A stretch of 61,448 nucleotides of DNA from Candidatus Moraniibacteriota bacterium (GTDB taxonomy: Bacteria > Patescibacteriota > Minisyncoccia > Moranbacterales > GCA-2747515): assembly GCA_947311515.1 (NCBI GenBank), contig CAMZLB010000025.1, positions 1 to 61,448 on the forward strand, in the 5' to 3' direction. Below, one piece after another: positions 2,938 through 27,136 of this stretch. The position numbers and the translations under genes are program-made. Under the pieces are notes generated by a model. That model was not told where the DNA came from. It saw only the letters and a program-made list of their open reading frames with translations, and did no database searches. The stretch's first letter is position 1; each line of letters opens with the position of its first letter.

Positions 2938-3537
2938 ATGAGTTTAAACATTATAACACTATCTGGAGTTGATGGTTCTGGCAAATCAACACAAATTGAT
3001 TTATTAAAAAAGTACTTAGATGATAACGGAGCAAAAACTTATTATTTTCATGCGATATCATTTTCACTTGCAAATACCAATAAAAATTTTGTAACAGGTA
3101 AATCCCCAGCTGTAACAAAAGCTTCATGGAATAAAGTTCAACTTAGAAAGCTAGTATTTATTTTAGACTCAATTAGATTCAGGATTCTTATAAAAAAATT
3201 AGAGCGTGACAACTACACACATTTGGTTTCTGATAGATATTTCTTTGATACTATTATTAATATATTATTTTTATCTAATGAGAAAAAAATATATTCATTT
3301 GGCGTCAATCTACTTGTAAAAATTATTAAAAGCCCTAATTTTGCTTTTTATATAGATATCTCAGCGGAAGAAATTCAAAGTAGAGATAGAAATATAGAAC
3401 AAGGGACTTCTTACATAAAGAAAAAAATTATCATTTTTAAACAGACCATTAAGGACTGGAATATACAATCAATAGATGGAGAGAGAAATCAGCTCATAAT
3501 AGCTAAAGATTTACAGCAAAAAATTAAATTGCATTAA
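2938..3537 (+). CDS. tmk: Thymidylate (dTMP) kinase-like P-loop kinase
   Basis: P-loop LSGVDGSGKSTQ at the N-terminus, a DRY motif (LVSDRYFFDT), and ~200 aa length typical of Tmk. Confidence 0.65.
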   Translation: MSLNIITLSGVDGSGKSTQIDLLKKYLDDNGAKTYYFHAISFSLANTNKNFVTGKSPAVTKASWNKVQLRKLVFILDSIRFRILIKKLERDNYTHLVSDRYFFDTIINILFLSNEKKIYSFGVNLLVKIIKSPNFAFYIDISAEEIQSRDRNIEQGTSYIKKKIIIFKQTIKDWNIQSIDGERNQLIIAKDLQQKIKLH

Positions 3538-3549
3538 AAATTTTGTCAG

Positions 3550-4830
3550 ATGAAAAAAACCTTAACATTATCTTTTATTTTTCTTATTTTTGCCGAATTC
3601 GTTTATAACATCTCATCTTATGTTATCAAATTTGGACTAGGTCATACACTAGGAGTCGCCGAATATGGAAGATATAGTATAGTATTATCCTTTACAACCA
3701 TGCTCATAGTACTTGCAGGGCGTGGAATACCAACGGCTATGACTAAACGTATTAGCGAACAATTAAGAGACTGGGACAAAATACTAGGAATTAAAAAAAC
3801 TTCAGCAAAATTGCAACTTGTCATAATATTTTCTATAACTATTATTTTCTTTTTTTCAGCTCCGCTTATAGCTAATGCATTTGGTGATAGTAGCCTCACC
3901 AACCTTTTTAGATTAAGTAGCCTACTCATACCTTCTTTTGCTCTTTCATCTTTTCATGTTGCCTATTTCAATGGACTAAAGGCCTTTGGAATGATGACTG
4001 CGTTAAAAAGCTCACGTGGAATTTTTCGTGGAATTTTTATAGTAACTGGTGCTTTTTTCTATGGACTTCATGGTGCTATAATTGGAGCCATACTCTCTCC
4101 ACTTGCAGTTTATCTGGTAGCAATCACTCTTGAGAAATTTTATATTAAAAAACCTACTAATACAAAAATATCATACTATAATTCAAAAGATATTATGTCT
4201 TATGCTTATAAATTTATAGTATTTTTATTTTTTTATGAATTTTTTACAAGAATTGATATCTATCTAATTAAATCTTTACTACATGATGATAGATTAACTG
4301 GACTATATGATTCTGCCATAACTACGGCACTTATTCCGTTTTATGCTGTATTTGCTCTGACATTTGTTTTATTTCCTACCATGTCCAAACTTACATCCAA
4401 TAATGAAATTCAAAAAATTAGAAAACTACTTCTAAGAATTTTTATATTTCTAATTTTATCGCTTAGCTCTGCATCCACTATACTTTTCTTTTTTCCAGAC
4501 TTTATAATCACATTACTTTTTGGCTCAAATTTTTCAGAAGCGAGCACACTTATACCATTTATGATTGGTGGTACATTTTTTGGTACTATCTTTTATATTT
4601 TTGCTTCTGTTTTAAATGGTTCAGGATATACCAAAATAACTTCATCTATAGTAGCAATAGCTCTAACTATAAGTACAATTGCAAATACATTATTTTTACC
4701 AATATATGGCACAATAGCAACAGCATTGATATTTTCAATGACATCAACTCTTATGGGTATAAGCATACTATTCTTTGTATATCTCAAATTTTTTAAAAGC
4801 ACATCTCATACAAATTTTCAAAAATATTAA
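3550..4830 (+). CDS. Polysaccharide/oligosaccharide flippase, MOP superfamily (Wzx/MurJ-like)
   Basis: 426-aa polytopic membrane protein with ~12 hydrophobic segments. Lies in a glycan-synthesis neighbourhood (GT4, GT2, sugar dehydrogenase). Confidence 0.6.
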   Translation: MKKTLTLSFIFLIFAEFVYNISSYVIKFGLGHTLGVAEYGRYSIVLSFTTMLIVLAGRGIPTAMTKRISEQLRDWDKILGIKKTSAKLQLVIIFSITIIFFFSAPLIANAFGDSSLTNLFRLSSLLIPSFALSSFHVAYFNGLKAFGMMTALKSSRGIFRGIFIVTGAFFYGLHGAIIGAILSPLAVYLVAITLEKFYIKKPTNTKISYYNSKDIMSYAYKFIVFLFFYEFFTRIDIYLIKSLLHDDRLTGLYDSAITTALIPFYAVFALTFVLFPTMSKLTSNNEIQKIRKLLLRIFIFLILSLSSASTILFFFPDFIITLLFGSNFSEASTLIPFMIGGTFFGTIFYIFASVLNGSGYTKITSSIVAIALTISTIANTLFLPIYGTIATALIFSMTSTLMGISILFFVYLKFFKSTSHTNFQKY

Positions 4831-4963: not shown

Positions 4964-7081
4964 ATGCACGAAAAGTACACAAAGCCCTATGATGCTTCAC
5001 TTATAGAAAATTCTATTTACAAAAAATGGGAAGAATCTGGATATTTCAATCCTGATAAATTGCCTGGAAAAAGAGAGGAGAGCTTTTGTATAGTCATGCC
5101 ACCTACGAATGCTAACGGAAAACTTCATGCAGGTCACGGTTCAGATTTTGTCATTAAAGATATTATAGGAAGGTATCAACGTATGATTGGTAAAAAGGTA
5201 TTACTATTACCAAGCACTGATCATGGAGGATTTGAAACTCAAGGAGTATATGAAAAAAATCTGCAAAAAGAGGGTCGCTCCCGATTTGGAATGAGTAAAG
5301 CTCAATTATACGATGAGATATATACTTTTGTAGAAAAAAATATACACAATATAGAAAATGATGTAAAAAAACTTGGAACTTCTTGTGATTGGTCCAGAAA
5401 TAAATTCACAATGCAAAAAGATATAATAGAAAAAGTCAAAGACACCTTTATTAAAATGTACAAAGATGGATTGATTTATAGAGGGAATCGTTCAATACAT
5501 TGGAATCCTAAATTTAAAACATCCTTAGCTGACATAGAAACTAAATTTGAAGATAAAACAGAACCATTTTATTATTTTAAATATGGTCCTTTTGAAATAG
5601 CTACATCTCGTCCAGAAACTAAATTTGGAGATAAATACGTAGTTATGCATCCAGATGATAAAAGATATAGTAATTGGAAAGAAGGAGACACTTTTGAAGC
5701 AGAATGGTTAAATGGAAAAATAACTGGAACTGTTCTAAAAGATGAAGCTATTGATATGGAATTTGGAACAGGTGTTATGACTATAACTCCATGGCATGAT
5801 GCTACTGATTTTGAAATTGCTCAAAGACATGGACTAGACTATGAGCAAATTATTGATTTAGATGGACGCTTAATGGATATTGCTGGAGAGTTTTCTGGTA
5901 TGAAAGTGCATATTGCTCGTCCTAAAGTTGTAGAAAAATTAAAAGAAAAGGGCTTAGTTACAAAAATAGAACAAAAACATACACATGCAGTAAGAGTTTG
6001 TGAAAGAACTGGTGTCATATTGGAGCCTCAGTTAATGGAACAATGGTTTGTAAAAATGAAACCTCTTACAGAGCTTGCATTAAAAGCCTTAAAAGAGAAA
6101 AGATTTTCTTTTGTTTCAAAACAATTTGAAAAAACCTTCAGATATTGGATGGAAAATTCAATAGATTGGAATATCTCTAGACAAATAGCTTGGGGAATTA
6201 CAATACCAGCATGGTTTAAAAATAAAGGAGAAGAAAATGAGGAAATTATAGTATCAAATACAAAGCCGGCTGGAGATGGGTGGAAACAGGACACTGACAC
6301 TTTCGATACATGGTTCTCTTCTGGACAATGGCCTCTTTTAGCATTAGGATACCCAAATAATTCTGATTTCAAAAACTTTTTTCCAACTGATGTAATGGAA
6401 ACAGGAAGAGATTTAGTTTTCAAATGGGTTCCTAAAATGATAATGTTTAGTTTATACCTGACTAAAGAAATTCCTTTTAAAGTTATTTATCTCCACGGTA
6501 TGGTCCTAGATAGAAAAGGACAAAAAATGAGCAAATCCAAAGGTAACACGTTGTCTCCGCTTGAACTTTCTGACGAATTCGGTACTGACGCTATGCGAAT
6601 GTCTTTTATAATAGGAAACACACCTGGAAAAGATATGCCCCTGACTACCAATAAAGTTAATGCTTATAAAAAGTTTGCAAACAAACTATGGAATATATCT
6701 AGATTCATTTACTCTAATACTGAAAATTTTGATTTTGATAATTTTGATACCTCTCTACTTGAAAAAGATCAACTAAATAAGATCGAAGAATTGGATGAAT
6801 TCAAAAAAGATTTATCAAAGGATATAGATGAATATAGACTTTATCTCGCAGCAGAAAAAATATATCATTTTATTTGGCATGAGCTTGCAGATAAAATTAT
6901 AGAAGATACTAAAGATTCTGTAATATCAGAAAATAAAGATATAAAAAATCAATATCTACTACTCAAATTTTTACATGAATCATTAAAAATGCTACATCCA
7001 TTTATGCCATTCATAACAGAAGAGATTTGGAAAGACTTCCCTATCAAAGATAAAGACTTGTTGATAGTTGAGAAATGGTAA
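4964..7081 (+). CDS. valS: Valine--tRNA ligase (compact form without the C-terminal coiled coil)
   Basis: Class I aaRS motifs: PPTNANGKLHAGH (HIGH) and KMSKSKGN (KMSKS). ValRS-type CP1 strings TSRPETKFGDKYVVMHPDD and GTGVMTITPWHD. Start taken at the ATG at 4964 (MHEKYTKPYD). Confidence 0.85.
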   Translation: MHEKYTKPYDASLIENSIYKKWEESGYFNPDKLPGKREESFCIVMPPTNANGKLHAGHGSDFVIKDIIGRYQRMIGKKVLLLPSTDHGGFETQGVYEKNLQKEGRSRFGMSKAQLYDEIYTFVEKNIHNIENDVKKLGTSCDWSRNKFTMQKDIIEKVKDTFIKMYKDGLIYRGNRSIHWNPKFKTSLADIETKFEDKTEPFYYFKYGPFEIATSRPETKFGDKYVVMHPDDKRYSNWKEGDTFEAEWLNGKITGTVLKDEAIDMEFGTGVMTITPWHDATDFEIAQRHGLDYEQIIDLDGRLMDIAGEFSGMKVHIARPKVVEKLKEKGLVTKIEQKHTHAVRVCERTGVILEPQLMEQWFVKMKPLTELALKALKEKRFSFVSKQFEKTFRYWMENSIDWNISRQIAWGITIPAWFKNKGEENEEIIVSNTKPAGDGWKQDTDTFDTWFSSGQWPLLALGYPNNSDFKNFFPTDVMETGRDLVFKWVPKMIMFSLYLTKEIPFKVIYLHGMVLDRKGQKMSKSKGNTLSPLELSDEFGTDAMRMSFIIGNTPGKDMPLTTNKVNAYKKFANKLWNISRFIYSNTENFDFDNFDTSLLEKDQLNKIEELDEFKKDLSKDIDEYRLYLAAEKIYHFIWHELADKIIEDTKDSVISENKDIKNQYLLLKFLHESLKMLHPFMPFITEEIWKDFPIKDKDLLIVEKW

Positions 7082-7557
7082 CGACTTTTATACAATCATT
7101 ATCTTTTGGAGGACTTGCAATTATAGGTGCTTTCATTGTTCAGGCTTTTGCAATAACCCTTATTTCAGTTTTCACAAGGGATCCTGGTATAAACTCTATT
7201 TTTGAACTAAATAATACATTTCTTGCTATAACAATAATTGCATTAATTGAAGAAGTATTTAGAATTGCACTTATAAAAAAATTAATAGACATAAGCAATA
7301 ATTCAAATATATTGTTTAAAGGATTTTCTTTTGGTTTCGGATTTTCTATGATTGAATTATTTTTCATATCTCAAAGCGTTCAACTAAATCCCTCTATTCT
7401 TTCTCTTGTGTCTGTGTTTATGTTTCATGTTTTAATAAGTATGTTTACTTTTTATAAATTAAATAAACATAGATATACTATTCAAGTAATCATTTCCCTG
7501 TTAATTGCTGTATCAGCACACATAATTTACAATATACTAGTAAATACTTTAACTTGA
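7075..7557 (+). CDS. CPBP-family (CAAX-like) intramembrane protease
   Basis: Multi-TM 160-aa protein with the three CPBP motifs in order: EEVFR (E-E-x-x-x-R), FMFHV (F-x-x-x-H) and HIIYN (H-x-x-x-N). The ATG overlaps the valS stop (ATGGTAA). Ends in TGA. Confidence 0.6.
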   Translation: MVTTFIQSLSFGGLAIIGAFIVQAFAITLISVFTRDPGINSIFELNNTFLAITIIALIEEVFRIALIKKLIDISNNSNILFKGFSFGFGFSMIELFFISQSVQLNPSILSLVSVFMFHVLISMFTFYKLNKHRYTIQVIISLLIAVSAHIIYNILVNTLT

Positions 7558-17455: not shown

Positions 17456-17484
17456 TTTACATGCGTCAATTAACATGCTATTAT
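17456..17484 (+). promoter_or_regulatory. Promoter of cassette 1
   Basis: TTTACA, a 17-nt spacer, then TATTAT. Nearly identical to 19516..19544 and homologous to 21641..21669. The upstream block CTTAGATTTAAAA... is also shared by all three cassettes. Confidence 0.55.
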
Positions 17485-17490
17485 CTTATC

Positions 17491-17587
17491 AGGTTAGTTT
17501 TTTGATGTATTTAGCAATGGGCTTATACGCGACAGTGACTTAGTCACAAACTAATCTCAAAGAGCACTTTAACAAAAAGGATTAGCT
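17491..17587 (+). promoter_or_regulatory. Conserved structured 5' leader of cassette 1 (candidate cis-regulatory RNA and/or 12-codon uORF)
   Basis: Outer helix GGTTAGTTT (17492..17500) / AAACTAATC (17548..17556). Inner hairpin GTGAC-TTA-GTCAC (17535..17547). Conserved TGATGTATTTAG box. uORF at 17505..17543 (MYLAMGLYATVT*). SD AAGGA before the ATG at 17588. Confidence 0.45.
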
Positions 17588-18871
17588 ATGTTACCCATAT
17601 CTAAGATATCTGTGATATTAAAATTAATTTTGATATCAGTTGTGATATTACTCATTCCAGAATATGAAAATATTTTTCTGAATACAGTAATATTTTTACT
17701 TGCGCTTGTATTGGTACTTTTATTATCTATTAACTTAATAAAGGATGTATACAGCATTATTGGACTACAAAACAATGGTCTCAATTTAGGAATCATTGTT
17801 TCTCTGATAGTTTCTATAGAAACTGTGTTATTGGCACATTCATTTCAAATAGTAGAAGATACTGATATGGTATTGGCTATTGATTTGATAACTATCGTAC
17901 TTAGTACTTTTGCAATATTTATGAGCGGTTTTAAAAATGTACCAACCCTTCACAGAGAACAACTAACTTTTATGAATAAAATCCTAGCTGGAAAAGAGTT
18001 ATCAGAAGGACCTAGTTGGTGGTTTCCGTTTGTTGGAGATAGAAATCTCTTTCTTTTAGAAAATAAGCAATTAACAATTTTCAAGAAAGTAAAAGAAATA
18101 TCTATTTCAGATAGCGTTCACTTTAAAATTATGTCTATGCATATCATGTATAAATATCTCAAAGGATCTTTATACAAAGTAATGAACTTAGGAGAAAATA
18201 CAGAAGAAGAGATAAAGAAATTTTCCTTGCCCTATATAAAAAAAGCTATGCTACTAACTATTACAGCAAAAACAAAGGGATGTATAGAGCAAAATGATTC
18301 AGGCTTATCAGTAATGGATTTTTTCTTAAAAAACACGGAACTTATCAATAGAATTCTATTAAATGGTTCCTTTTTTGAATCTCATCAAAGATATAGTTCG
18401 CTACTTCAGGACAATTTTTATATAGATAGTGTAGTAAAACTATATAACAAACAACACCTTGATAAAAAAAATGTACCTAAAAGTAGGAAACTTAGTTGGT
18501 TTACACCAGAAATAGCTCTGGAGTATAAATTACCTGTTTTTACAGACGAACAAGCCGACAATTTAATTTCTAATAATATAGGTACAAGTGAACTAGTAAA
18601 TAATGGCTTGTTGAACAAGTTTCATGAAAACGGTTTTCAATTTATATATTTTATAATAGGACCTATGAAAGTTTCGGAAAATAATGAATATAATGGTAAT
18701 AGTGCCACCAATCCCGCACCCTCGTCGTCTAATAATAGATTTTCAGAGATATGTAGAGAGATTTTTGCATGGATTGAAATAAGAATGATAATGTTCATTG
18801 TTATTATTGTGGGAAGGATATGGTATTTCTTCAATGAAGAAGATACTGATTTTAGTTCTAGTTCTAACTAG
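17588..18871 (+). CDS. Cassette 1 'A' protein: 4-TM N-terminus + SPFH/Band-7-like domain, fused in frame to a B-type TM anchor and short Ser linker; ends at an in-frame TAG
   Basis: 427-aa ORF. The SPFH-like assignment comes from motif order (GPSWWFPFVG..., ...GFQFIYFIIGPMKVSENNE), by homology to copy 3. The C-terminal WIEIRMIMFIVIIVGRIWYFF-SSSSN matches the anchor and linker of the copy 3 B protein. The TAG at 18869..18871 is in frame with the next ORF. Confidence 0.6.
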   Translation: MLPISKISVILKLILISVVILLIPEYENIFLNTVIFLLALVLVLLLSINLIKDVYSIIGLQNNGLNLGIIVSLIVSIETVLLAHSFQIVEDTDMVLAIDLITIVLSTFAIFMSGFKNVPTLHREQLTFMNKILAGKELSEGPSWWFPFVGDRNLFLLENKQLTIFKKVKEISISDSVHFKIMSMHIMYKYLKGSLYKVMNLGENTEEEIKKFSLPYIKKAMLLTITAKTKGCIEQNDSGLSVMDFFLKNTELINRILLNGSFFESHQRYSSLLQDNFYIDSVVKLYNKQHLDKKNVPKSRKLSWFTPEIALEYKLPVFTDEQADNLISNNIGTSELVNNGLLNKFHENGFQFIYFIIGPMKVSENNEYNGNSATNPAPSSSNNRFSEICREIFAWIEIRMIMFIVIIVGRIWYFFNEEDTDFSSSSN

Positions 18872-18904
18872 AATCTGCCTAAACAGATCTTCAAAGATGT
18901 AGTT

Positions 18905-19351
18905 TTGCCATCTCCAGATGGAACAACTATACTAACTATGGAGGCTAACACAACTTATTTTGTGAAAGCTTCTATGGATCGCAGGTACCGACTGGAAGAG
19001 CACGTTTACCCTAATTACATTGGGCTTTTTTATCCAAATGGAGCATGTAGAGGAATGCCGTCTTTGCACTACCCCGCAGATAAACATGTCAAAAAGGAGT
19101 TTGGAGATGTCAAGTGGCGAAAACCATATGAGGCAGTATTAATAGCTCTCGTATGTACCGACAATGATGATGCTAAGCTGAAATGTGAAGTCCTATCTGA
19201 CAGAACAATCGCAATCAGAGGGAAAAAAGGGGAAAAGCTAAAGCTATCCCTAAATTTCCCAATAGAAAATGGTATATATGATAGAAACGAATATGCCAAA
19301 AAATGTTTTAGGGGTGGCTGGCTGATAACGGTCGAAAGCTCCAAGAATTAA
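18905..19351 (+). CDS. Cassette 1 'B' C-terminal domain (unknown ~140-aa domain), same frame as the preceding ORF
   Basis: LPSPDGTTILTMEANTTYFVKASMDRRYRLEEH...RGGWLITVESSKN is homologous to residues ~150-292 of the copy 3 B protein. No SD precedes either TTG 18905 or ATG 18938. Expression therefore needs TAG readthrough or SD-less initiation. Confidence 0.45.
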   Translation: MPSPDGTTILTMEANTTYFVKASMDRRYRLEEHVYPNYIGLFYPNGACRGMPSLHYPADKHVKKEFGDVKWRKPYEAVLIALVCTDNDDAKLKCEVLSDRTIAIRGKKGEKLKLSLNFPIENGIYDRNEYAKKCFRGGWLITVESSKN

Positions 19352-19354
19352 AAT

Positions 19355-19390
19355 AAGAGTAGATACATCGCTATCTACTCTTTTGATTTT
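19355..19390 (+). terminator. Intrinsic terminator of cassette 1
   Basis: Perfect 11-bp stem AAGAGTAGATA / TATCTACTCTT with loop CATCGC, then TTGATTTT. An identical hairpin follows all three cassettes. Confidence 0.7.
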
Positions 19391-19515
19391 GTGATATTTT
19401 TACAAAATTAACAATAAACTTGTCCCTAAATAAGATTTTTAATAGAAATAATCAGTACTTTTATTTCTTGTTTTCTGTTTTGTGTCTAAGATTTAAATAT
19501 TTATAATATAGATAC

Positions 19516-19544
19516 TTTACATGCGTCAATTACCATGATATTAT
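19516..19544 (+). promoter_or_regulatory. Promoter of cassette 2
   Basis: TTTACA, a 17-nt spacer, then TATTAT. Two substitutions relative to the cassette 1 promoter. Confidence 0.55.
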
Positions 19545-19550
19545 CTTATC

Positions 19551-19646
19551 AGGTTAGTTTTTTGATGTATTTAGCAATGGGCTTATACGCGACAGTGACT
19601 TAGTCACAAACTAATCTCAAAGAGCACTTTAACAAAAAGGACGCCT
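19551..19646 (+). promoter_or_regulatory. Conserved structured 5' leader of cassette 2
   Basis: Identical to the cassette 1 leader from the -10 element to the SD, by eye. Includes the same helix, hairpin and uORF (19565..19603). Confidence 0.45.
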
Positions 19647-20657
19647 ATGTTAGACATTCCTAAAATATCTATGATATTAAAATTAATTTTGATATCAGTT
19701 ATGATATTACTCATTCCAGAATATAAAAATATTTTTCTGGATCCGAATATAGATATAATAATATCTTTACTTGCAATTGTCATAATAATTCTATTGACTA
19801 TTAAATCATTAAAGGATTTCTATAGTATTATTGGACTAGAAACTAACGGTCTCAATTTAGGGATCATTTTTCCCCTGATAGTTCCTATAGAAACTGTGTT
19901 ATTAGTACACTCATTTCAAATAGTAGAGAATACTGATGTGCTATTGGCTATTGATTTGATAACTCTCGTACTTAGCGCTTTTGTAATATTTATGATCGAT
20001 TTTAGAAATTTCTTTCTTTTGGAGGAAAATAAGCAATTAACAATTCTCAAAAAAGGAGAGAAAATATCTATTTCAGGTAACCTTTATTTTGAAAGTCTGC
20101 CTATGCATATCATATACAAATATCGCAAAGGATTTTTATGCAAAGTAATAAATTTAGGAAAAAATGAAAAAGAAAAGATAAAGAAATTTTCCTTGCCTTG
20201 TATAAAAAAAGCTATGCTACTAACTATCGCAACAAAAACAAAGGAAGGTATAGAAAAAAAATATTCAGGCTTATCAGTAATGGATTTTTTCTTGAAAAAC
20301 ACGGAACTTACCAATAGAATTCTATTAAATGGTTCATTTTTCGAATCTCATCAAAGATATCACTTGCTACTTCAGGACAATTTGTATATAGATAGTGTAG
20401 TAAAACTATACGACAAACAACACCTTGATAAAAAAAATGTACCTAAAAGTAGGAAACTTAGTTGGTTTACACCAGAAATAGCTCTGGAGTATAAATTGCC
20501 TGTTTTTACAGACGAACAAGCCGACAATTTAATTTCTAATAATATAGGTACAAGTGAACTAGTAAATAATGGCTTGTTGAACAAGTTTTATGAAAACGGT
20601 TTTCAATTTATATATTTTATAATAGGACCTATGAAAGTTTCGGAAAATAATGAATAG
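19647..20657 (+). pseudogene. Cassette 2 'A' paralog with internal deletion of the SPFH-like N-terminal strands and a premature in-frame TAG (probable pseudogene or readthrough-dependent)
   Basis: Lacks ~33 codons present in copy 1 (VPTLHREQLTFMNKILAGKELSEGPSWWFPFVGDRN). A TAT-to-TAG change at 20655..20657 sits where copy 1 reads ...NNEYNGNS. The same frame stays open downstream. Confidence 0.5.
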
Positions 20658-20867
20658 GATGGTAACAGCGCCACCAATCCCGCACCCTCGTCGTCTAATA
20701 ATGGATTTTCAGAGGGACTCAGAAAGATTTTTACATGGATTAAAATGCTAATATTTCTTATCATTGTTTGGGTAATATGGTATTTTTTCAGTGATAATAC
20801 TGATTTCAGTAATAATTTCAGTTCTGATTTTAGTTCTAATTCTACTTCTAGTTCTAGTTCTAACTAG
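20658..20867 (+). other. In-frame open segment of cassette 2 (B-type TM anchor + Ser-rich linker) bounded by two TAG codons
   Basis: Translates as DGNSATNPAPSSSNNGFSEGLRKIFTWIKMLIFLIIVWVIWYFFSDNTDFSNNFSSDFSSNSTSSSSSN followed by TAG (20865..20867). Same frame as 19647 and 20937. Confidence 0.4.
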
Positions 20868-20936
20868 AATCTACCTAGACAACAGATCTTTAAAGACGTA
20901 GTTTTACCATCTCCAGATGGAACAACTATACTAACT

Positions 20937-21356
20937 ATGGAAGCTAACACAACTTATTTTGTGAAAGCTTCTATGGATCGCAGGTACCGACTGGAAGAGC
21001 ACTTTTACCCTAATTTCATTGGACTTTCTTATCCGAATGGAGCGTCTAACGGAATGCCGTCTTCGCTCTACCCAGTAGATAAACGTGTTAAAAAGGGGTT
21101 TGGAGATCTGATAAAGTGGAAAAAACCATATGAGGCTATATACACAGCACTCATATGTACCAACAATGACAATAGTACGGAATTGGAATGTGAAGTCCTA
21201 TCTGACAGAACAATCGCAATCAGAGGAAAAGAAGGGGAAAAGCTAAAGCTATCCATGAATTTTCCAATAGAAAATGGTCTATATAATAGAAACGAATATA
21301 CCAAAAAATACTTAAGGGGTGGCTGGCTGATCACAGTCGAAAGCTCCAAGAATTAA
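20937..21356 (+). CDS. Cassette 2 'B' C-terminal domain (unknown ~140-aa domain)
   Basis: MEANTTYFVKASMDRRYRLEEHFYPNF...RGGWLITVESSKN. Intact ORF, in frame with the upstream segments, no SD. Confidence 0.4.
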   Translation: MEANTTYFVKASMDRRYRLEEHFYPNFIGLSYPNGASNGMPSSLYPVDKRVKKGFGDLIKWKKPYEAIYTALICTNNDNSTELECEVLSDRTIAIRGKEGEKLKLSMNFPIENGLYNRNEYTKKYLRGGWLITVESSKN

Positions 21357-21359
21357 AAT

Positions 21360-21396
21360 AAGAGTAGATACATCGCTATCTACTCTTTTGATTTTT
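21360..21396 (+). terminator. Intrinsic terminator of cassette 2
   Basis: Same AAGAGTAGATA-CATCGC-TATCTACTCTT hairpin plus T tract. Confidence 0.7.
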
Positions 21397-21505
21397 GCAA
21401 CCTAAAAATTCAAACAAAAAAGATGAGCAGTAACTCATCTTTTTAAATTTAGAGCCAATCTACACAATAATCTTTGCAAGTGATTTGATAATTACTAGTG
21501 ATACA
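21397..21505. repeat. Duplication scar: copy of 23990..24098, including a second hairpin and a ~45-bp relic of the pilin gene 3' end
   Basis: TGCAACCTAAAAATTCAAACAAAAAAGATGAGCA.TAACTCATCTTTTTAAATTTAGAGCCAATCTACACAATAATCTTTGCAAGTGATTTGATAATTAC occurs at both places. At 24053+ it encodes the C-terminus (...IIKSLAKIIV*) of a minus-strand pilin. Confidence 0.7.
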
Positions 21506-21640
21506 ATACTATTTCATCAAAGAAGCCTAATTAAATCTAATTTTCTTATTAAATTTTAAGTTTTCAATAAAAATAATTAGCTCTATTCTTTTCCGTATTT
21601 CACTCTATATCTTAGATTTTAAAATTCAAAACATAAACAC

Positions 21641-21669
21641 TTGACTTATTTAAATTATTATGCTATCAT
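21641..21669 (+). promoter_or_regulatory. Promoter of cassette 3
   Basis: TTGACT, a 17-nt spacer, then TATCAT. Confidence 0.55.
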
Positions 21670-21674
21670 ATTTT

Positions 21675-21779
21675 TAGTTTAGTATTTAGTGATGTATTTA
21701 GAATGTTCTACTTACACACTTATAATTTATTATAAAACTAAACTAACTTTCTTTAACAATTGAATAAAAAGGATATAAA
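21675..21779 (+). promoter_or_regulatory. 5' leader of cassette 3 (diverged homologue of the cassette 1/2 leader)
   Basis: Outer helix TAGTTTAGT (21675..21683) / ACTAAACTA (21737..21745): different sequence, same architecture. Conserved GTGATGTATTTAG box. uORF at 21692..21763 (MYLECSTYTLIIYYKTKLTFFNN*). SD AAGGA before the ATG at 21780. Confidence 0.4.
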
Positions 21780-23069
21780 ATGAAATTTTTAGGAATTTTA
21801 TTAAGTATAGCAGCTCTAATATTTGGACTGCTACTAGGTTCAGAGATGTATGCTACGTCAAGTGATATTAGTATTACAACAATGATACTTGGAGACATTC
21901 TACTTTCTGGTTTCTTAGCAGTAAGCACAGTATCTACTCTCTATTTTACATATAAAATAGTTGAGTTAAGTTATAATGGCTTACTACTTGGAGCACTAAC
22001 TTCGTTATTGCTTACAATAGAAACAATAATCATTGTAAATACACTGTTTCCACTAGGACTGCTATTGAACACTGTGGTGTTCGTGTTGCTAGTAGTGTTT
22101 TTCTTTTTCCATGGATACCTGGAGATACCTAACCTCAATAAAGCGCAAATTTTTTTCATAGAGAAAACGTTACCGAGGGGCGAATTAGTGGATGGGCCTG
22201 CGTGGTTCTTCAACATCCCCTCTTTAATAGAGATTAGACTCTTTTTGATGGATGTTAGAACATTAGAACTCTTCAAGGGAGATCCTCTCTCAATATCCCA
22301 TGGGATGAGCTTCAAAACTTCACCTATAAAAGTGACATATAAGCTCAACAATTTAGAGCAGTATATCAAATTGGGTGCAGAAGCAAGAAAAGATTGGGAA
22401 AATTATTTAGTAGACAGTATCAGAAATGCTGCAATACTAATAATAAGTAGCAAAAGTGAAGAAGAACTAAATGAAGAGTATTCAGGTCTAGCATTACTCC
22501 TCATTATGGACTCATTAAAAATGTTCAAGAGAATTATCTTGAATGGAACTTATTTTGAGTCTCATCTAGAATATCCCATACTGAAAAGAGATGAAATGTA
22601 TGAGAAAAAGATACAGGACACATATGCAAATTTAGATGACTTTACAAAAGAGGAGAGTCAAAAAAACAAAATACATATCTTTTCAGATAAACAATGGACA
22701 ATGTTACTAGATTCCAAAAGTGAGGACAACCTACCCAATAGAGGGGTTTTGCATAAAAGCTCAGATATAGGCTTTACGTTGGTGGATATCACTTTTGGAA
22801 ACTTCACATTAGAGGATTCTCTACAAGCTGAAATCCTCAAGAAAAGAAGTGAAGGCCTCCAAAGAGAAGCAGAATTAGCTGACATAACAACACTGGAAAT
22901 GTTAGCTAAAAAAATAGCGTCTTTAGGAATTCCAATTGACAAGGCTACACAACTAGCCATGTTGCGTATGGATACACCAAACCTAAACTACAAAGTAACT
23001 GAAATTTTATCCACATCGGATAAAGTTGACCAAGTTATAGCAGCACTTATAGAAGGAAAAGGAGAATAA
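21780..23069 (+). CDS. Cassette 3 'A' protein: 4-TM N-terminus + SPFH/Band-7-like domain with coiled-coil tail (full-length form)
   Basis: 429 aa. Strings follow SPFH order: GPAWFFNIPSLIEIRLFLMDVRTLELF, IKVTYKLNNLEQYI, YLVDSIRNAAILII, IGFTLVDITFGNFTLEDSLQAEILKKRSEGLQREAELADI. Family call is by eye only. Confidence 0.6.
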   Translation: MKFLGILLSIAALIFGLLLGSEMYATSSDISITTMILGDILLSGFLAVSTVSTLYFTYKIVELSYNGLLLGALTSLLLTIETIIIVNTLFPLGLLLNTVVFVLLVVFFFFHGYLEIPNLNKAQIFFIEKTLPRGELVDGPAWFFNIPSLIEIRLFLMDVRTLELFKGDPLSISHGMSFKTSPIKVTYKLNNLEQYIKLGAEARKDWENYLVDSIRNAAILIISSKSEEELNEEYSGLALLLIMDSLKMFKRIILNGTYFESHLEYPILKRDEMYEKKIQDTYANLDDFTKEESQKNKIHIFSDKQWTMLLDSKSEDNLPNRGVLHKSSDIGFTLVDITFGNFTLEDSLQAEILKKRSEGLQREAELADITTLEMLAKKIASLGIPIDKATQLAMLRMDTPNLNYKVTEILSTSDKVDQVIAALIEGKGE

Positions 23070-23070
23070 A

Positions 23071-23949
23071 ATGATTTACTTAATAATGATGTTAATAATC
23101 ATATTTACGAACAAACCAAACTTTGGATTTGATTCTGTGTTTGAGGATCTTGGATTCAAAAAAGAGCTTGAGGAAGCGGAAAAAGCAAAAAAATCCGCAC
23201 CCTTGTGGTCTAGCAATATAACCAAAATAGCATCTGGATTTATAAAGGGATTAGCAAATCTTTTTCTGTGGATTGCAAAAATGCTAATGTACTTTGCTAT
23301 TGCTTGGGGAATATGGTATTTCTTCAGTCATACTGATTTTAGTTCTAACTTTAGTTCTAGTTCTAGTTCTAGTTCTAGTTCTAATTCTAGTTCTAATTCT
23401 AGTTCTAATTCTAGTTCTAATTCTAGTTCTAGTTCTAGTTCTAGTTTTAGCTCTAGTTCTTACCAGAATATACTTAGACAACAGATCTTTAAAGATATAG
23501 TTTTACCATCTCCAGATGGCACAACTATACTAACTATGGAAGCCAACACAACTTACATTGTAAAGGCTTCTATGGACAGAAGATACAGACTGGAAGAGCA
23601 CTTTGACCCTAATTTCATTGGACTACTTTATCCAAATGGAAAATCTAACGGGAGAAAAATTTCCTCATACCCAGCAGATAACTTTATCAAAAAGGGATTT
23701 GGAGATATAAAGTGGAGAAAACCATATGAAGCAGTATACATAGCACTCATATGTGTCGACAATGACGATGGTAAACTGGAATGTGAGGTCCTATCTGACA
23801 GAACAATCGCAGTTAAAGGAAAGAAAGAAGGAAAACTAAAACTATCCCTAAATTTCCCAATAGAGAATGGTATATATGATAGAAACGAATACCCAAAAAA
23901 ATATTTTAGAGGTGGCTGGCTAATCACAGTCGAAAGCTCCAAGAATTAA
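23071..23949 (+). CDS. Cassette 3 'B' protein: N-terminal hydrophobic segment, TM anchor, ~40-residue poly-Ser/Asn linker, unknown ~140-aa C-terminal domain
   Basis: 292 aa with a strong SD (AAGGAG) 7 nt upstream. The ATG lies 1 nt after the A stop. The C-terminal domain is homologous to 18905..19351 and 20937..21356. Confidence 0.65.
   Translation: MIYLIMMLIIIFTNKPNFGFDSVFEDLGFKKELEEAEKAKKSAPLWSSNITKIASGFIKGLANLFLWIAKMLMYFAIAWGIWYFFSHTDFSSNFSSSSSSSSSSNSSSNSSSNSSSNSSSSSSSSFSSSSYQNILRQQIFKDIVLPSPDGTTILTMEANTTYIVKASMDRRYRLEEHFDPNFIGLLYPNGKSNGRKISSYPADNFIKKGFGDIKWRKPYEAVYIALICVDNDDGKLECEVLSDRTIAVKGKKEGKLKLSLNFPIENGIYDRNEYPKKYFRGGWLITVESSKN
23341..23460 (+). repeat. Hexanucleotide microsatellite (AGTTCT / AGTTCTAATTCT)n encoding the poly-Ser(Asn) linker
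   Basis: About 20 consecutive 6-nt units read directly from the sequence. Both alternative-frame ORFs here (23284..23481 minus, 23294..23500 plus) are artefacts of the repeat. Confidence 0.9.
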
Positions 23950-23952
23950 AAT

Positions 23953-23989
23953 AAGAGTAGATACATCGCTATCTACTCTTTTGATTTTT
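23953..23989 (+). terminator. Intrinsic terminator of cassette 3
   Basis: Same 11-bp perfect hairpin plus T tract as after cassettes 1 and 2. Confidence 0.7.
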
Positions 23990-24008
23990 GCAACCTAAAA
24001 ATTCAAAC

Positions 24009-24038
24009 AAAAAAGATGAGCACTAACTCATCTTTTTA
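24009..24038 (-). terminator. Bidirectional hairpin terminator closing the minus-strand pilin array
   Basis: AAAAGATGAG-CACTAA-CTCATCTTTT flanked by A and T runs, 15 nt downstream of the pilin stop at 24053. Duplicated at 21416..21446. Confidence 0.6.
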
Positions 24039-24052
24039 AATTTAGAGCCAAT

Positions 24053-24679
24053 CTACACAATAATCTTTGCAAGTGATTTGATAATTACCAGCGATATAAG
24101 AGCTATAACTATACCTACAACTGCATATTTGATAGTGTTTTTGCCCATTTCTGCACGCTTTTCATCTCCTGTTGAAGTAATATATATAACCCCACCTACA
24201 ACTATCATGAGCACACTAAGACCTCCTATGAAACTCATGAGGGATTTGAGGACATTTAGTACTATTTCAGAAAGCGTTTTTGCAGCTACAGCTTCAGCTG
24301 GTACTATAGCAGGACTAACATTCATTACATCATATATCTCCTTGAGAAATGATGGAGCCGCAAACGCTAGTGAAACTCCTATGATAGCTGCCCATATAGC
24401 TCCCTTTGCCATACTCATACGCTTTTCATCGCCAGAAGATGTGATATATATAATACCGCCTATCACTATAAATACTATAGCTAGCACACCTATCATCATC
24501 TGAATAGTCTTCAAGATATTTGATAGTAATGCCTCTACAGTATCAAAGGCCAATGGATTTTCAAATTTTATTGGAGTTATTACTACTCCTTGTGCCCCAA
24601 CATCTTGTGGCATTATAAATGAAAAGGCTATAGTTAGTACGATTATAACTGGAAGAGATGTTTTGAATAAACTTTTCAT
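24053..24679 (-). CDS. Internally duplicated (double) TrbC/VirB2-like 'T4SS pilin' family protein
   Basis: Signal peptide (…FIMPQDVGAQG), then two repeats of the pilin unit. Each unit has a TM helix, GG(I/V)IYITS(S/T)GDEKR, and a second TM helix. Confidence 0.65.
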   Translation of the reverse strand: MKSLFKTSLPVIIVLTIAFSFIMPQDVGAQGVVITPIKFENPLAFDTVEALLSNILKTIQMMIGVLAIVFIVIGGIIYITSSGDEKRMSMAKGAIWAAIIGVSLAFAAPSFLKEIYDVMNVSPAIVPAEAVAAKTLSEIVLNVLKSLMSFIGGLSVLMIVVGGVIYITSTGDEKRAEMGKNTIKYAVVGIVIALISLVIIKSLAKIIV

Positions 24680-24700
24680 ATTTTTTAATTTTTGAAATTA

Positions 24701-25108
24701 TTATATTGCTCCGAGAGCTCTAGATACTACATAAACTATGACATAAGCAAGAAGTGCCAAGATTAATCCATATATCGCTGTAGTAAATATCCTCTTCGCC
24801 GTGTCAACTCTGCTTTCATCAGATTCAGAAGTTATATACATCAAACCACTTACAATTATCATAAGTGTTGCAAGACCTCCTAGAAATTGCAATATAAAAC
24901 TTATAATCTTTACGATGACTGTTATTATTTTATCATCAGTGGAGATACCCTTTGGACCTTGAGCATGATTTGGATCTGGTAAGCAAACTCCGTCTACCAG
25001 TGCGTATCCAGGTGTACTAGTACAAGTAAAGGCGCTTGTGTATTGAAAATTTCCCCACAGTGTCAATGCAAATACAAACACTAGCATAGATATAAATTTT
25101 ATTTTCAT
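24701..25108 (-). CDS. TrbC/VirB2-like 'T4SS pilin' family protein
   Basis: Signal peptide, Cys pair (CTSTPGYALVDGVC), TM helix, SGLMYITSESDESRVDTAK, then a second TM helix. Confidence 0.65.
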   Translation of the reverse strand: MKIKFISMLVFVFALTLWGNFQYTSAFTCTSTPGYALVDGVCLPDPNHAQGPKGISTDDKIITVIVKIISFILQFLGGLATLMIIVSGLMYITSESDESRVDTAKRIFTTAIYGLILALLAYVIVYVVSRALGAI

Positions 25109-25184
25109 ATTTTTTATTTAATTTTTATCCATTATCACTCAGATACTTACTTTAGTATACATCAACATATACATAAAACACAAA

Positions 25185-25580
25185 TTACATACCTACAACT
25201 TTTGATACAATATTTACTATAACCCAAGCAAGCAAAACAATGATAAGTCCATATATTACCTGTATAATCATAGTCTTTGCCATTTCAATACGCTTTTCAT
25301 CTCCACCTGATGTTATATATATAATTCCAGCAACGATAAGATACACAACAGCCAACGCAGCCACGAAGCTTAATATAAATTTCATAACTTTCACTATAAC
25401 ACCACTAACCGTAGGACTTGTTTCCTTTCCAACTTTTGTGACTTTTAATCCATCCTCAAAACTAGGAAAACTTTCTGCATTAGCATGCCCTACAAAAGCA
25501 ATTTCACATCCATCAGTAGAGACTGCAAAAACTCCTATAATCAATAAAAGAAAAAAACCTATTTTCATCAAAGATTTCAT
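25185..25580 (-). CDS. TrbC/VirB2-like 'T4SS pilin' family protein
   Basis: Start taken at the ATG at 25580 (MKSLMKIGFF...). Motif AGIIYITSGGDEKRIEMAK lies between two TM helices. Confidence 0.65.
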   Translation of the reverse strand: MKSLMKIGFFLLLIIGVFAVSTDGCEIAFVGHANAESFPSFEDGLKVTKVGKETSPTVSGVIVKVMKFILSFVAALAVVYLIVAGIIYITSGGDEKRIEMAKTMIIQVIYGLIIVLLAWVIVNIVSKVVGM

Positions 25581-25631
25581 ATTTTTATTTTTTAACCTTA
25601 TATTTTTATTATACACGCTTTTGTGCAAAAT

Positions 25632-25662
25632 AAAAACTCTAGTCAATAAGTCTAGGGTTTTT
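25632..25662 (-). terminator. Intrinsic terminator between pilin paralogs
   Basis: Minus strand: AAAAACCCTAG-ACTTATTGA-CTAGAGTTTTT, then ATTTT. Part of a repeated intergenic block. Confidence 0.55.
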
Positions 25663-25767
25663 AGATATATTTTAAAAGCTATTTCAAATCCTACCTTTTT
25701 GTTGAAATATAATAATTCAACTAAAAGTAAGTATTTTCAAAAAACTATTAATAATATTTAACACTTA

Positions 25768-26142
25768 CTACGGACCTATAACTACATTTGATACGATATT
25801 TACAATTACCCATCCAAGTAATGCAATTATAAGTCCTATGATTGCATATATTATCCATTTCTTTGCTGTTTCTACTTTTCCTTCATCTCCTCCTGATGTT
25901 ATGTACATAATTCCAGCAATAAGTATGACAAGAACAGCCAAAGCAGCTAGAAATGTCAAAAAAAATGAAATAACCTGCCGTATAATACTAATCACCGTCC
26001 TTGTTCCTCCTTTATCATTATATTGTGCTACCGCAAGTCCTCCTTTATAATCAGCATTCAAAGATCCAGCTACTGCATACAAAGGATTTATCAAAAAAGC
26101 TATTGCAAGAGCGATAATAGCATTGTTTTTGATTGTATTCAT
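25768..26142 (-). CDS. TrbC/VirB2-like 'T4SS pilin' family protein (tandem paralog)
   Basis: GGAGGTG SD upstream of the ATG at 26142 (MNTIKNN...). Motif AGIMYITSGGDEGKVETAKKWIIYAIIGLIIALLGWVIVNIVS. Confidence 0.7.
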   Translation of the reverse strand: MNTIKNNAIIALAIAFLINPLYAVAGSLNADYKGGLAVAQYNDKGGTRTVISIIRQVISFFLTFLAALAVLVILIAGIMYITSGGDEGKVETAKKWIIYAIIGLIIALLGWVIVNIVSNVVIGP

Positions 26143-26209
26143 ACTATTCACACCTCCTCTCTTTTAATTTTTATAACTTGCATTCATTATACACGCTTTT
26201 GTGCAAAAT

Positions 26210-26240
26210 AAAAACTCTAGTCAATAAGTCTAGAGTTTTT
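26210..26240 (-). terminator. Intrinsic terminator between pilin paralogs (second copy)
   Basis: Perfect 11-bp stem AAAAACTCTAG / CTAGAGTTTTT with a 9-nt loop, inside the repeated intergenic block 26188..26353. Confidence 0.55.
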
Positions 26241-26345
26241 AGATATATTTTAAAAGCTATTTCAAATCCTACCTTTTTGTTGAAATATAATAATTTAACT
26301 AAAAGTAAGTATTTTCAAAAAACTATTAATAATATTTAACACTTA

Positions 26346-26720
26346 CTACGGACCACCTATAACTAGAGTTGATACGATATTTACAATTACCCATCCAAGT
26401 AGTGCAATTATAAGTCCTATGATTGCATACATTATCCAATTCTTTGCTGTCTCTACTTTTCCTTCATCTCCTCCTGATGTTATATACATAATTCCAGCAA
26501 CAAGTATGACAAGAACAGCCAAAGCAGCTAGAAATGTCAATAAAAATGTAATAATTTTCAAAATAATTGTAGGAATATCAGTATTTGTATTATCAGTATA
26601 TTTTACTTTATCTCTTCCTGTTTTAAATGTAGCATCTAGACCTGCTTGAGCACTAGCTAAGCTTGGAACTACTAGGATTGTAAACAACAATGCTAGGCTG
26701 GTATTTTTGATTATGTTCAT
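26346..26720 (-). CDS. TrbC/VirB2-like 'T4SS pilin' family protein (tandem paralog)
   Basis: GGAGGTG SD upstream of the ATG at 26720 (MNIIKNT...). The C-terminal half is almost identical to 25768..26142. Confidence 0.7.
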   Translation of the reverse strand: MNIIKNTSLALLFTILVVPSLASAQAGLDATFKTGRDKVKYTDNTNTDIPTIILKIITFLLTFLAALAVLVILVAGIMYITSGGDEGKVETAKNWIMYAIIGLIIALLGWVIVNIVSTLVIGGP

Positions 26721-27136
26721 TTTAGCATACACCTCCTCTCTTTTATTTTTTTAAATCTCATATTTATTGTATATCTTTTTTAAGAAATAGTCAACCACAT
26801 TTTTAATATATAGCAAATATATAACTAATCATATATTAGAATTCACCACGTTATTTGTATTTTTTTTAAGATAAAAATAACAATTAATTATTCTATTATA
26901 TTTCTATATGAGACTTAGCTATATTGTAATAATTTACAAATCTTATTATTTTTTTTATGATTTCTATTTTTAAATTCAGTTTTTTGTACTATATTTTTAA
27001 TAAAGTTCCAATAACTTACTCATTTTATCTGTAAATTCTTTTATGTATTTTTATAAATTTTTATTCAGTACTAGCGCCCCTATATTTTAAAGATAAACTG
27101 TAAATATTAACAAAAAAAATTAATAAACTAAATCTA

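Follow-up and report, generated by a model that had tools for sequence, protein, structure and literature searches.

A rare SPFH-like membrane module with a putative surface-anchored partner, present as one intact and two damaged copies beside a pilin array

A 61,448-nucleotide contig assigned to Candidatus Moraniibacteriota (CAMZLB010000025.1 in assembly GCA_947311515.1; here called the window) carries three consecutive cassettes on its plus strand, at 17456-19390, 19516-21396, and 21641-23989, each with two parts that we call A and B. We think, with moderate confidence, that one of them is a working operon for a rare two-gene membrane module, in which an SPFH scaffold (A) is paired with a surface-anchored partner (B), and that the other two are derived paralogues of it that have suffered damage; all lie beside an array of pilin genes. 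The intact one is copy 3, and the damaged ones are copies 1 and 2. An initial annotation, made from the sequence alone, had placed the cassettes at these coordinates, on which repeat families and frame translations agree, and had proposed that A is SPFH-like, that B belongs to no recognizable family, and that the two may form a new pairing. The four tests that it set, on the profile of A, the family of B, the co-occurrence of the two genes elsewhere, and the soundness of the assembly, all favored its reading, with corrections: a single intact module, stop codons in the other two copies, and a mosaic history.

Copy 3 is indeed the clean two-gene version described earlier, with A3 of 429 amino acids (aa) and B3 of 292 aa. 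The B3 start codon (ATG 23071) lies one base past the A3 stop and has its own Shine-Dalgarno sequence (AAGGAG at 23059-23064), and this one-base spacing suggests that A and B are likely made together. Start and stop of the two genes are adjacent or overlapping not only in the window but also in the related loci L001, L005/L006, and L004. A3 and its L001 orthologue are 97% identical, with a ratio of nonsynonymous (dN) to synonymous (dS) substitution rates of 0.105.

The A protein and its SPFH relatives

The four N-terminal transmembrane (TM) helices attributed to A in the initial annotation were found again with a simple hydropathy script: the hydrophobic helices end at about residue 110, the third carries a conserved NG-x3-G-x3-S motif, and an SPFH-like motif starts at about residue 115. 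An insert of ~90 aa has no counterpart in P0015, the shortest relative.

Direct searches found little. A word-indexed search of 5.8 billion proteins with A3 returned A3 itself only, and pattern scans for relatives returned none from GTDB representative genomes (two scans) or JGI metagenomes (one scan). The A proteins matched no family in Pfam, NCBIfam, PHROGs, or PADLOC, where the Ser linker gave only low-complexity noise. An exhaustive HMMER search of 1.84 billion representative proteins, using a profile built from the window only, yielded 14 matches, nine of them A relatives (P0006-P0013 and P0015). P0014 (1,816 aa) was set aside as spurious because it matched the profile solely via a short motif repeated 14 times.

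The relatives found in this way connect A to the SPFH proteins. P0015 matches the Band_7 profile (PF01145) with 39.8 bits (E = 6.6e-10) over profile positions 4-174 of 176, and P0011 (26.5 bits) and P0013 (25.9 bits) also exceed the gathering score of 23.6 bits; P0008, P0010, and P0012 score slightly under it, and the A-like protein at locus L012 reaches 23.5 bits. The near A group (A3, A1, P0006-P0009, and a 408-aa protein from L014) aligns to the Band_7-positive group over 388 columns with an hhalign probability of 100% (E = 7e-48). Because three of the relatives pass the Band_7 cutoff and the A group aligns to them at this probability, A appears to be a very divergent SPFH protein anchored by four helices, as had been suspected from its motifs. 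The family profiles also find stomatin, PH stomatin, HflK, and HflC in the PDB, in the correct register, as weak matches (E = 0.4-2), and hhalign against a single stomatin sequence recovers the right register at a probability of only 5%. In a low-confidence AlphaFold2 model of A, strands at 160-189 are followed by helices, strands at 332-344, and a helix at 346-380, an order that fits SPFH; the long helix after the SPFH domain is absent from copies 1 and 2. The A family appears to be rare and lineage restricted, and all five clusters that we looked up are singletons.

The B protein, its pairing with A, and its variability

B begins with a 12-residue hydrophobic N-terminus and a Lys-rich segment, followed by a single TM helix, a Ser-rich linker, and a beta-rich domain of ~150 aa; members of its family range from 239 to 292 aa. 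Hydropathy gives four helices for A, one for B, and five for the fused copy 1 described below, so that the membrane would separate the SPFH part from the B domain. Positive charges ahead of the anchor, Cys pairs conserved in relatives (GCG...CPDG), and the Ser-rich stalk further suggest that the B outer domain lies on the cell surface. The cell-surface setting envisaged in the initial annotation is a prediction from hydropathy, the linker, and the Cys pairs. The linker is encoded by a 12-nucleotide (nt) repeat whose length differs in every copy and strain, L001 included; in the damaged copies it occupies 18850-18868 and 20797-20864, and L015, an independently assembled contig, terminates within it. 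Since slippage in 6- or 12-nt steps preserves the frame, it would change stalk length and not switch the gene off.

We judged pairing on seven loci besides the window, the contigs of other relatives being too short. A-like and B-like genes neighbor each other in the window and in six of these loci: L001 (GCA_947313845.1; 93-95% DNA identity to the window), with a copy-3-type pair and convergent pilins; L005/L006 (GCA_054011055.1), where P0008 is overlapped by a 246-aa B-like gene; L004, where P0007 is followed by a B-type N-terminus; L002, with an A-like gene and then three tandem B-like genes; L012 (GCA_027039165.1), with a B-like gene, a 200-base pilin remnant, and a 484-aa A-like gene; and L014, with two B-like genes, a convergent pilin, and the 408-aa A-like gene. 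B-like genes therefore do co-occur with A-like genes outside the window. The seventh locus, L008, has the Band_7-positive P0015 followed by a protein (3020-3997) that has the B-type N-terminal layout (hydrophobic start, spacer, TM anchor) but a different, unrelated outer region of 240 aa, for which we found no Pfam match. Perhaps the anchor is what is conserved for docking, while the outer domain can be swapped.

The B outer domain is hypervariable and fast changing. Over their first 130 aa, P0016, P0019, P0021, and the third copy in L002 share 92-98% identity, against 33-55% over the remainder; the last strand of the domain is conserved in the L002/L014 lineage. When copy 3 is compared with its positional orthologue in L001, the B domain has a dS of 0.57 and A one of 0.14 (Fisher p = 6e-8), with dN of 0.133 and 0.015, respectively. 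In L014, the pilin is 85% identical to that of the window and B only ~27%. At 30 of 49 informative sites, the L001 B domain sides with copies 1 and 2, not with copy 3, which points to exchange between paralogues.

The B gene can also be amplified alone, as in L002 (1276-4311) and L014 (2-1404), with three or more tandem paralogues whose N-terminal halves are near-identical and whose outer domains diverge. Two of these paralogues are each preceded by an identical 56-aa open reading frame (ORF; L002 2287-2457 and 3512-3682).

These features can be assembled into a working model. A would be held in the membrane by its four N-terminal helices, with the SPFH domain and helical tail predicted to be cytoplasmic, and, by analogy with solved SPFH proteins, would assemble a ring or cage on the inner membrane face. 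B, co-produced with A, would keep its short Lys-rich N-terminal tail inside the cell; tail and anchor would dock in the A scaffold, which would cluster and hold the surface domain, while the Ser-rich stalk would lift this ~150-aa beta-rich domain to the cell surface, beside the VirB2-like pilins. This domain changes fast, probably helped by exchange between paralogous copies, as expected of a contact or recognition surface. That copies 1 and 2 have A fused in frame to the B anchor, together with the conserved gene order, hints at contact between A and B.

Copies 1 and 2 and the history of the array

Copies 1 and 2 share the in-frame loss reported by the initial annotation, which removed ~373 bases (the tail of A plus ~41 codons from the start of B) and fused A to the B anchor (Table 1). 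The cassette 1 ORF still matches the A-family hidden Markov model with E = 1e-131. Overlooked earlier was a TAG that cuts both fused frames just after the Ser linker, at 18869-18871 in copy 1 and 20865-20867 in copy 2; copy 3 reads CAG at this position, and in the related strain L001 the codon is one for Gln. At 20655-20657, where copy 1 reads TAT, a second TAG interrupts copy 2, whose 38-codon deletion takes out the GPxWWFP core motif. We considered and rejected a reassigned or read-through TAG: it terminates 14 of the 49 ORFs of the window, conserved genes among them, so the in-frame TAGs of copies 1 and 2 are real stops. The remaining ORFs end in TAA (n = 34) and TGA (n = 1); the sole TGA (7555-7557) closes a 160-aa ORF (7075-7557) with no Pfam family. 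The standard code reads cleanly through the window, whose G+C content is ~30%.

Table 1. Features of the three cassettes and the adjoining region, in window coordinates
Feature	Position	Strand	Description
Promoter-like site, cassette 1	17456-17484	+	TTTACA, 17 nt, TATTAT; TG before second hexamer
Leader, cassette 1	17492-17587	+	~96 nt; AAAAAGGA at its end, before ATG
Cassette 1 ORF	17588-18871	+	427 aa; four TM helices and divergent SPFH-like domain without C-terminal helical tail, fused in frame to B-type anchor and short Ser linker; ends at TAG
Cassette 1 B-domain segment	18872-19351	+	same frame, 3' of TAG; possible restarts TTG 18905 and ATG 18938
Terminator hairpin, cassette 1	19355-19382	+	11 pairs, 6-nt loop, T-rich tail
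Promoter-like site, cassette 2	19516-19544	+	position equivalent to cassettes 1 and 3; TG before second hexamer
Leader, cassette 2	19552-19646	+	close to cassette 1 leader
Cassette 2 A part	19647-20657	+	336 aa; 38-codon deletion; ends at second TAG
Cassette 2 anchor and Ser-linker segment	20658-20867	+	same frame; closed by TAG common to copy 1
Cassette 2 B-domain segment	20868-21356	+	3' of both TAGs; internal ATG 20937
Terminator hairpin, cassette 2	21360-21387	+	identical to cassettes 1 and 3
Duplicated spacer, pilin-gene terminator (21417-21444), and last bases of pilin gene	21388-21512		98-100% identical to 23981-24099
Promoter-like site, cassette 3	21641-21669	+	TTGACT, 17 nt, TATCAT; TG before second hexamer
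Leader, cassette 3	21677-21779	+	more distant from cassette 1 and 2 leaders
A3	21780-23069	+	429 aa, intact; four TM helices, divergent SPFH/Band-7 domain, ~90-aa insert, predicted long helix 346-380, helical tail
B3	23071-23949	+	292 aa, intact; short hydrophobic N-terminus, Lys-rich segment, one TM anchor (~residues 60-85), Ser-rich linker, ~150-aa all-beta domain
Ser-linker repeat	23330-23468	+	(AGTTCT)n, 12-nt period; length differs in every copy and strain
Terminator hairpin, cassette 3	23953-23980	+	identical to cassettes 1 and 2
T4SS_pilin (PF18895, VirB2-like) array	24053-26732	-	five genes, convergent, assigned with Pfam; first gene has two pilin domains

We propose that copies 1 and 2 descend from one ancestor that would have undergone the in-frame deletion of the A tail and B N-terminus and then a CAG-to-TAG change before the B domain, and that copy 2 would have decayed further than copy 1. 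Most likely, both are derived paralogues in decay whose sequence still recombines with that of copy 3.

The initial annotation called the array a tandem triplication. While the three cassettes are real, they are neither equal copies nor a recent triplication of one unit: A1 and A2 share 79% identity with each other and just 25-28% with A3, with synonymous sites saturated (dS 1.7-2.0), and A3 is nearer to homologues from other lineages (31-33%) than to A1. Protein identity among the three B domains is 77-80%, and the terminators match completely (100%). The cassettes thus combine old and young parts. The segment at 21388-21512 is the footprint of a duplication whose unit reached into the pilin gene, and the L014 pilin matches the window at 21459-21512. 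Pilin sequence also lies between the B-like and A-like genes of L012, as the 200-base remnant (1212-1413), and of L014, as a whole convergent pilin (1503-2039); the ancestral repeat unit was probably A, B, and then pilin.

Misassembly of the array is unlikely. The objection that the three copies might be an assembly artifact fails on two counts: the copies diverge among themselves, and L015 (run ERR4221282) equals window 21466-23402 at 100% identity, spanning the junction between copies 2 and 3.

Each cassette has its own promoter-like site, as annotated at 17456, 19516, and 21641. Shuffled sequence of this AT-rich region gives about as many such sites (34.2 versus 37 observed), so the evidence for promoters is their conservation at equivalent positions in all three cassettes; in relatives, promoter (TTGACA, 17 nt, TG-n-TATACT) and leader are conserved as well. 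The perfect 11-bp terminator attributed to all three cassettes is borne out by an identical 28-base hairpin with 11 pairs and a T-rich tail after each one.

As the initial annotation had it, each cassette carries a related leader: leaders 1 and 2 are 94% identical, and that of cassette 3 is ~70% identical to them. Minimum-energy folds give an outer stem in cassette 1 (GGUUAGUUU/AAACUAAUC; z-score only -0.8) and in cassette 3 (GUUUAGU/ACUAAAC; a weak z-score of -1.3). In the short-type leaders of five A-like genes (L005 9920-9974, L011 299-353, L009 134-188, L012 1458-1512, and L007 52-102), a hand-specified two-helix element at the 5' end is supported: 91% of cells pair (28-44% in slid controls), compensatory changes occur in 5 of 14 pairs, and covariation scores 0.46 versus 0.19 in shuffles, none of 500 of which scored as high. 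RNAalifold predicted no structure from the raw 13-sequence leader alignment, and a covariance model built from the five relatives' leaders does not detect the longer leaders of the window. The same model also matches ahead of B-like genes, at 376-427 in L014 (E = 0.008) and less strongly in L002.

Upstream of the array lie genes for NusG, L1, an RsmC-like methyltransferase, VanW, and Hsp20; farther downstream are a DEAD-box helicase gene and two very long ORFs. The adjoining, convergent pilin-paralog array noted earlier is made up of five T4SS_pilin genes directly downstream of copy 3, and the same pilin neighbor occurs in L001 and L014. The first pilin gene (24053-24679, minus strand) encodes two T4SS_pilin domains within one 208-aa protein; the conservation of its L014 orthologue is far above that of the adjoining A and B genes. 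Two plus-strand ORFs within the array (25240-25761 and 26133-26339), both spurious, finish with the same ~50-aa stretch, which indicates that the regions upstream of two pilin genes are duplicated. This suggests that the pilin array, promoter regions included, also grew by tandem duplication. VirB2-like pilin arrays of 2-11 genes are reported to be common and highly variable in Patescibacteria (bioRxiv 10.1101/2025.01.22.634366), and the window therefore probably belongs to a chromosome of this group.

Alternative readings and comparison with known systems

Several findings weigh against our reading of one working module with two damaged paralogues. A1, A2, and A3 themselves have no Band_7 match at E ≤ 1, and their SPFH assignment is by transitivity. 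The AlphaFold2 models, built on 3- and 4-sequence alignments, leave both folds unconfirmed (mean predicted local distance difference test scores of 37 for A and 49 for B), and topology comes from the hydropathy script, not from a trained predictor. Mosaic blocks in the L001 B domain are not statistically clustered (runs test p = 0.2). The pilin neighborhood is common to related genomes and may therefore reflect descent rather than function. Finally, the B-domain segments of copies 1 and 2, compared with each other, depart from neutrality (dN/dS 0.40, binomial p = 0.003), which fits plain pseudogenes poorly.

This last result bears on whether copies 1 and 2 are themselves working variants, the A-anchor fusion being a self-contained scaffold and the B domain being made by reinitiation (at ATG 18938 or 20937) or by TAG read-through. 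Their A parts, too, have a dN/dS below 1 (0.56, p = 0.01), their promoters and ribosome-binding sites are intact, copy 1 retains every invariant residue of the seven-sequence A-group alignment, and a gene caller predicted products of 137 and 139 aa (P0003 and P0004). Still, we consider this unlikely. SPFH proteins assemble via their helical tail, and the fusion lacks it; copy 2 has two stops and is missing the core SPFH motif. Having neither anchor nor signal, a B domain restarted internally would remain cytoplasmic; no clear ribosome-binding site precedes the internal starts, and TAG is a normal stop here.

It is a little less probable still that copies 1 and 2 are silent donor cassettes of the pilE/pilS type, from which B segments are gene-converted into the expressed copy 3. 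Such a system would account for the different history of the B domain and its flanks, for the L001 sites that match copies 1 and 2 over the positional orthologue, and for donor segments that stay open and constrained despite an upstream stop; the flanks are conserved, with anchor and linker on one side and the identical terminator on the other, and relatives show constant ends round a variable core. However, just two donors exist, both with a promoter and start of their own; the runs test found no significant mosaic blocks; and ordinary ectopic gene conversion between tandem paralogues yields the same signals with no programmed system needed. A bolder extension of our own reading, in which B would represent a new class of hypervariable surface recognition domain, docked in a polytopic SPFH scaffold, diversified from the silenced copies 1 and 2, and acting with the pilin array in host contact by a Patescibacteria-type episymbiont, strikes us as similarly doubtful.

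B could also be a cryptic, highly diverged NfeD homologue, and the locus an ordinary SPFH-NfeD operon. NfeD is the recurrent operon partner described so far for prokaryotic SPFH genes, a pairing that is conserved across lineages, with the SPFH gene sometimes duplicated (PMC2636767). Like NfeD, B shares its operon with an SPFH gene, is anchored in the membrane, and has an all-beta domain at its end, and NfeD proteins diverge to ~21% identity yet keep their fold (PMC2636767). Nevertheless, we judge this very improbable. Nine B-family proteins gave no match to NfeD (PF01957) at E ≤ 1, and a B profile run against all PDB chains at E ≤ 10 found nothing meaningful and no NfeD chain, in keeping with the earlier statement that B has no recognizable family, NfeD included. 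B has no match in Pfam, NCBIfam, PADLOC, or PHROGs beyond Ser-linker noise, its relatives (P0002, P0016-P0021, and the L002 and L005 genes) match no Pfam family, and Foldseek with the low-confidence B model found nothing in the PDB at E < 0.1, only insignificant beta-sandwich matches with TM-scores of ≤0.34. NfeD proteins are 140-150 aa long, with three N-terminal hydrophobic stretches and a small soluble five-stranded beta-barrel (PMC2636767), set against the greater length, single clear TM helix, and ~150-aa domain of B, and the B domain is predicted to lie across the membrane from the SPFH domain.

That the locus is a conflict system (anti-phage defense or a toxin-like effector) with the SPFH protein as membrane sensor or effector seems hardly credible: rapid turnover, tandem amplification, and a patchy, rare distribution (those 14 matches and the singleton clusters) would fit, but A3, A1, B3, P0008, P0011, P0015, and P0016 have no PADLOC match (PADLOC-DB 2.0) at E ≤ 0.1, family-library scans found no nuclease, protease, NTPase, or toxin domain, and the neighbors are housekeeping and pilin genes.

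Under the reading that we prefer, a working operon with two decaying paralogues, the locus would define a rare SPFH subfamily with a four-helix anchor, consistently paired with a partner type other than NfeD that is fast varying, stalked, and probably surface exposed. SPFH scaffolds occur throughout life, and the module would widen what they may organize, from proteases and channels in the membrane to a variable surface protein. The pilin array and base composition suggest that the host is an episymbiont of the Patescibacteria type; if so, the module would be a candidate for host contact or interplay with phages. To our knowledge, most surface proteins of Patescibacteria lack an assigned function. 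What is gained in practice is modest, namely a defined family with its alignments and about ten loci.

Among known systems, the solved SPFH assemblies (HflK/C, QmcA, stomatin, flotillin, and prohibitin) show the same motif order as A: an anchor, FG-x-L ... eG-x-x-W/F-x-x-P ... D-x-r/t, G-i-x-v-x-x-i-x-i ... D, and a long charged helix. However, the similarity of A to any one solved member is insignificant by itself, and a ring or cage is attributed to A by analogy only. Typical SPFH members have one helix or a hairpin as anchor; that of A is atypical in being polytopic. The operons that pair SPFH with NfeD (qmcA-ybbJ, yuaF-floT, yqeZ-floA, and PH1511-PH1510) resemble ours in joining an SPFH scaffold gene with a membrane-anchored all-beta partner. 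They differ in that B lacks the NfeD signature, is about twice as long, replaces three hydrophobic stretches with a clear TM helix and a Ser-rich stalk, and ends in a larger domain that is hypervariable and predicted to be extracellular, while A has its additional helices and the ~90-aa insert. Finally, arrays of paralogues that vary surface proteins, such as pilE/pilS of Neisseria and the VirB2 arrays of Patescibacteria, Bartonella, and Anaplasma, have in common with this locus constant ends, a variable core, and signs of exchange in tandem paralogues; here, by contrast, there are two extra copies only, each with a promoter, and the protein that varies is not a pilin but appears to be a new anchored domain.

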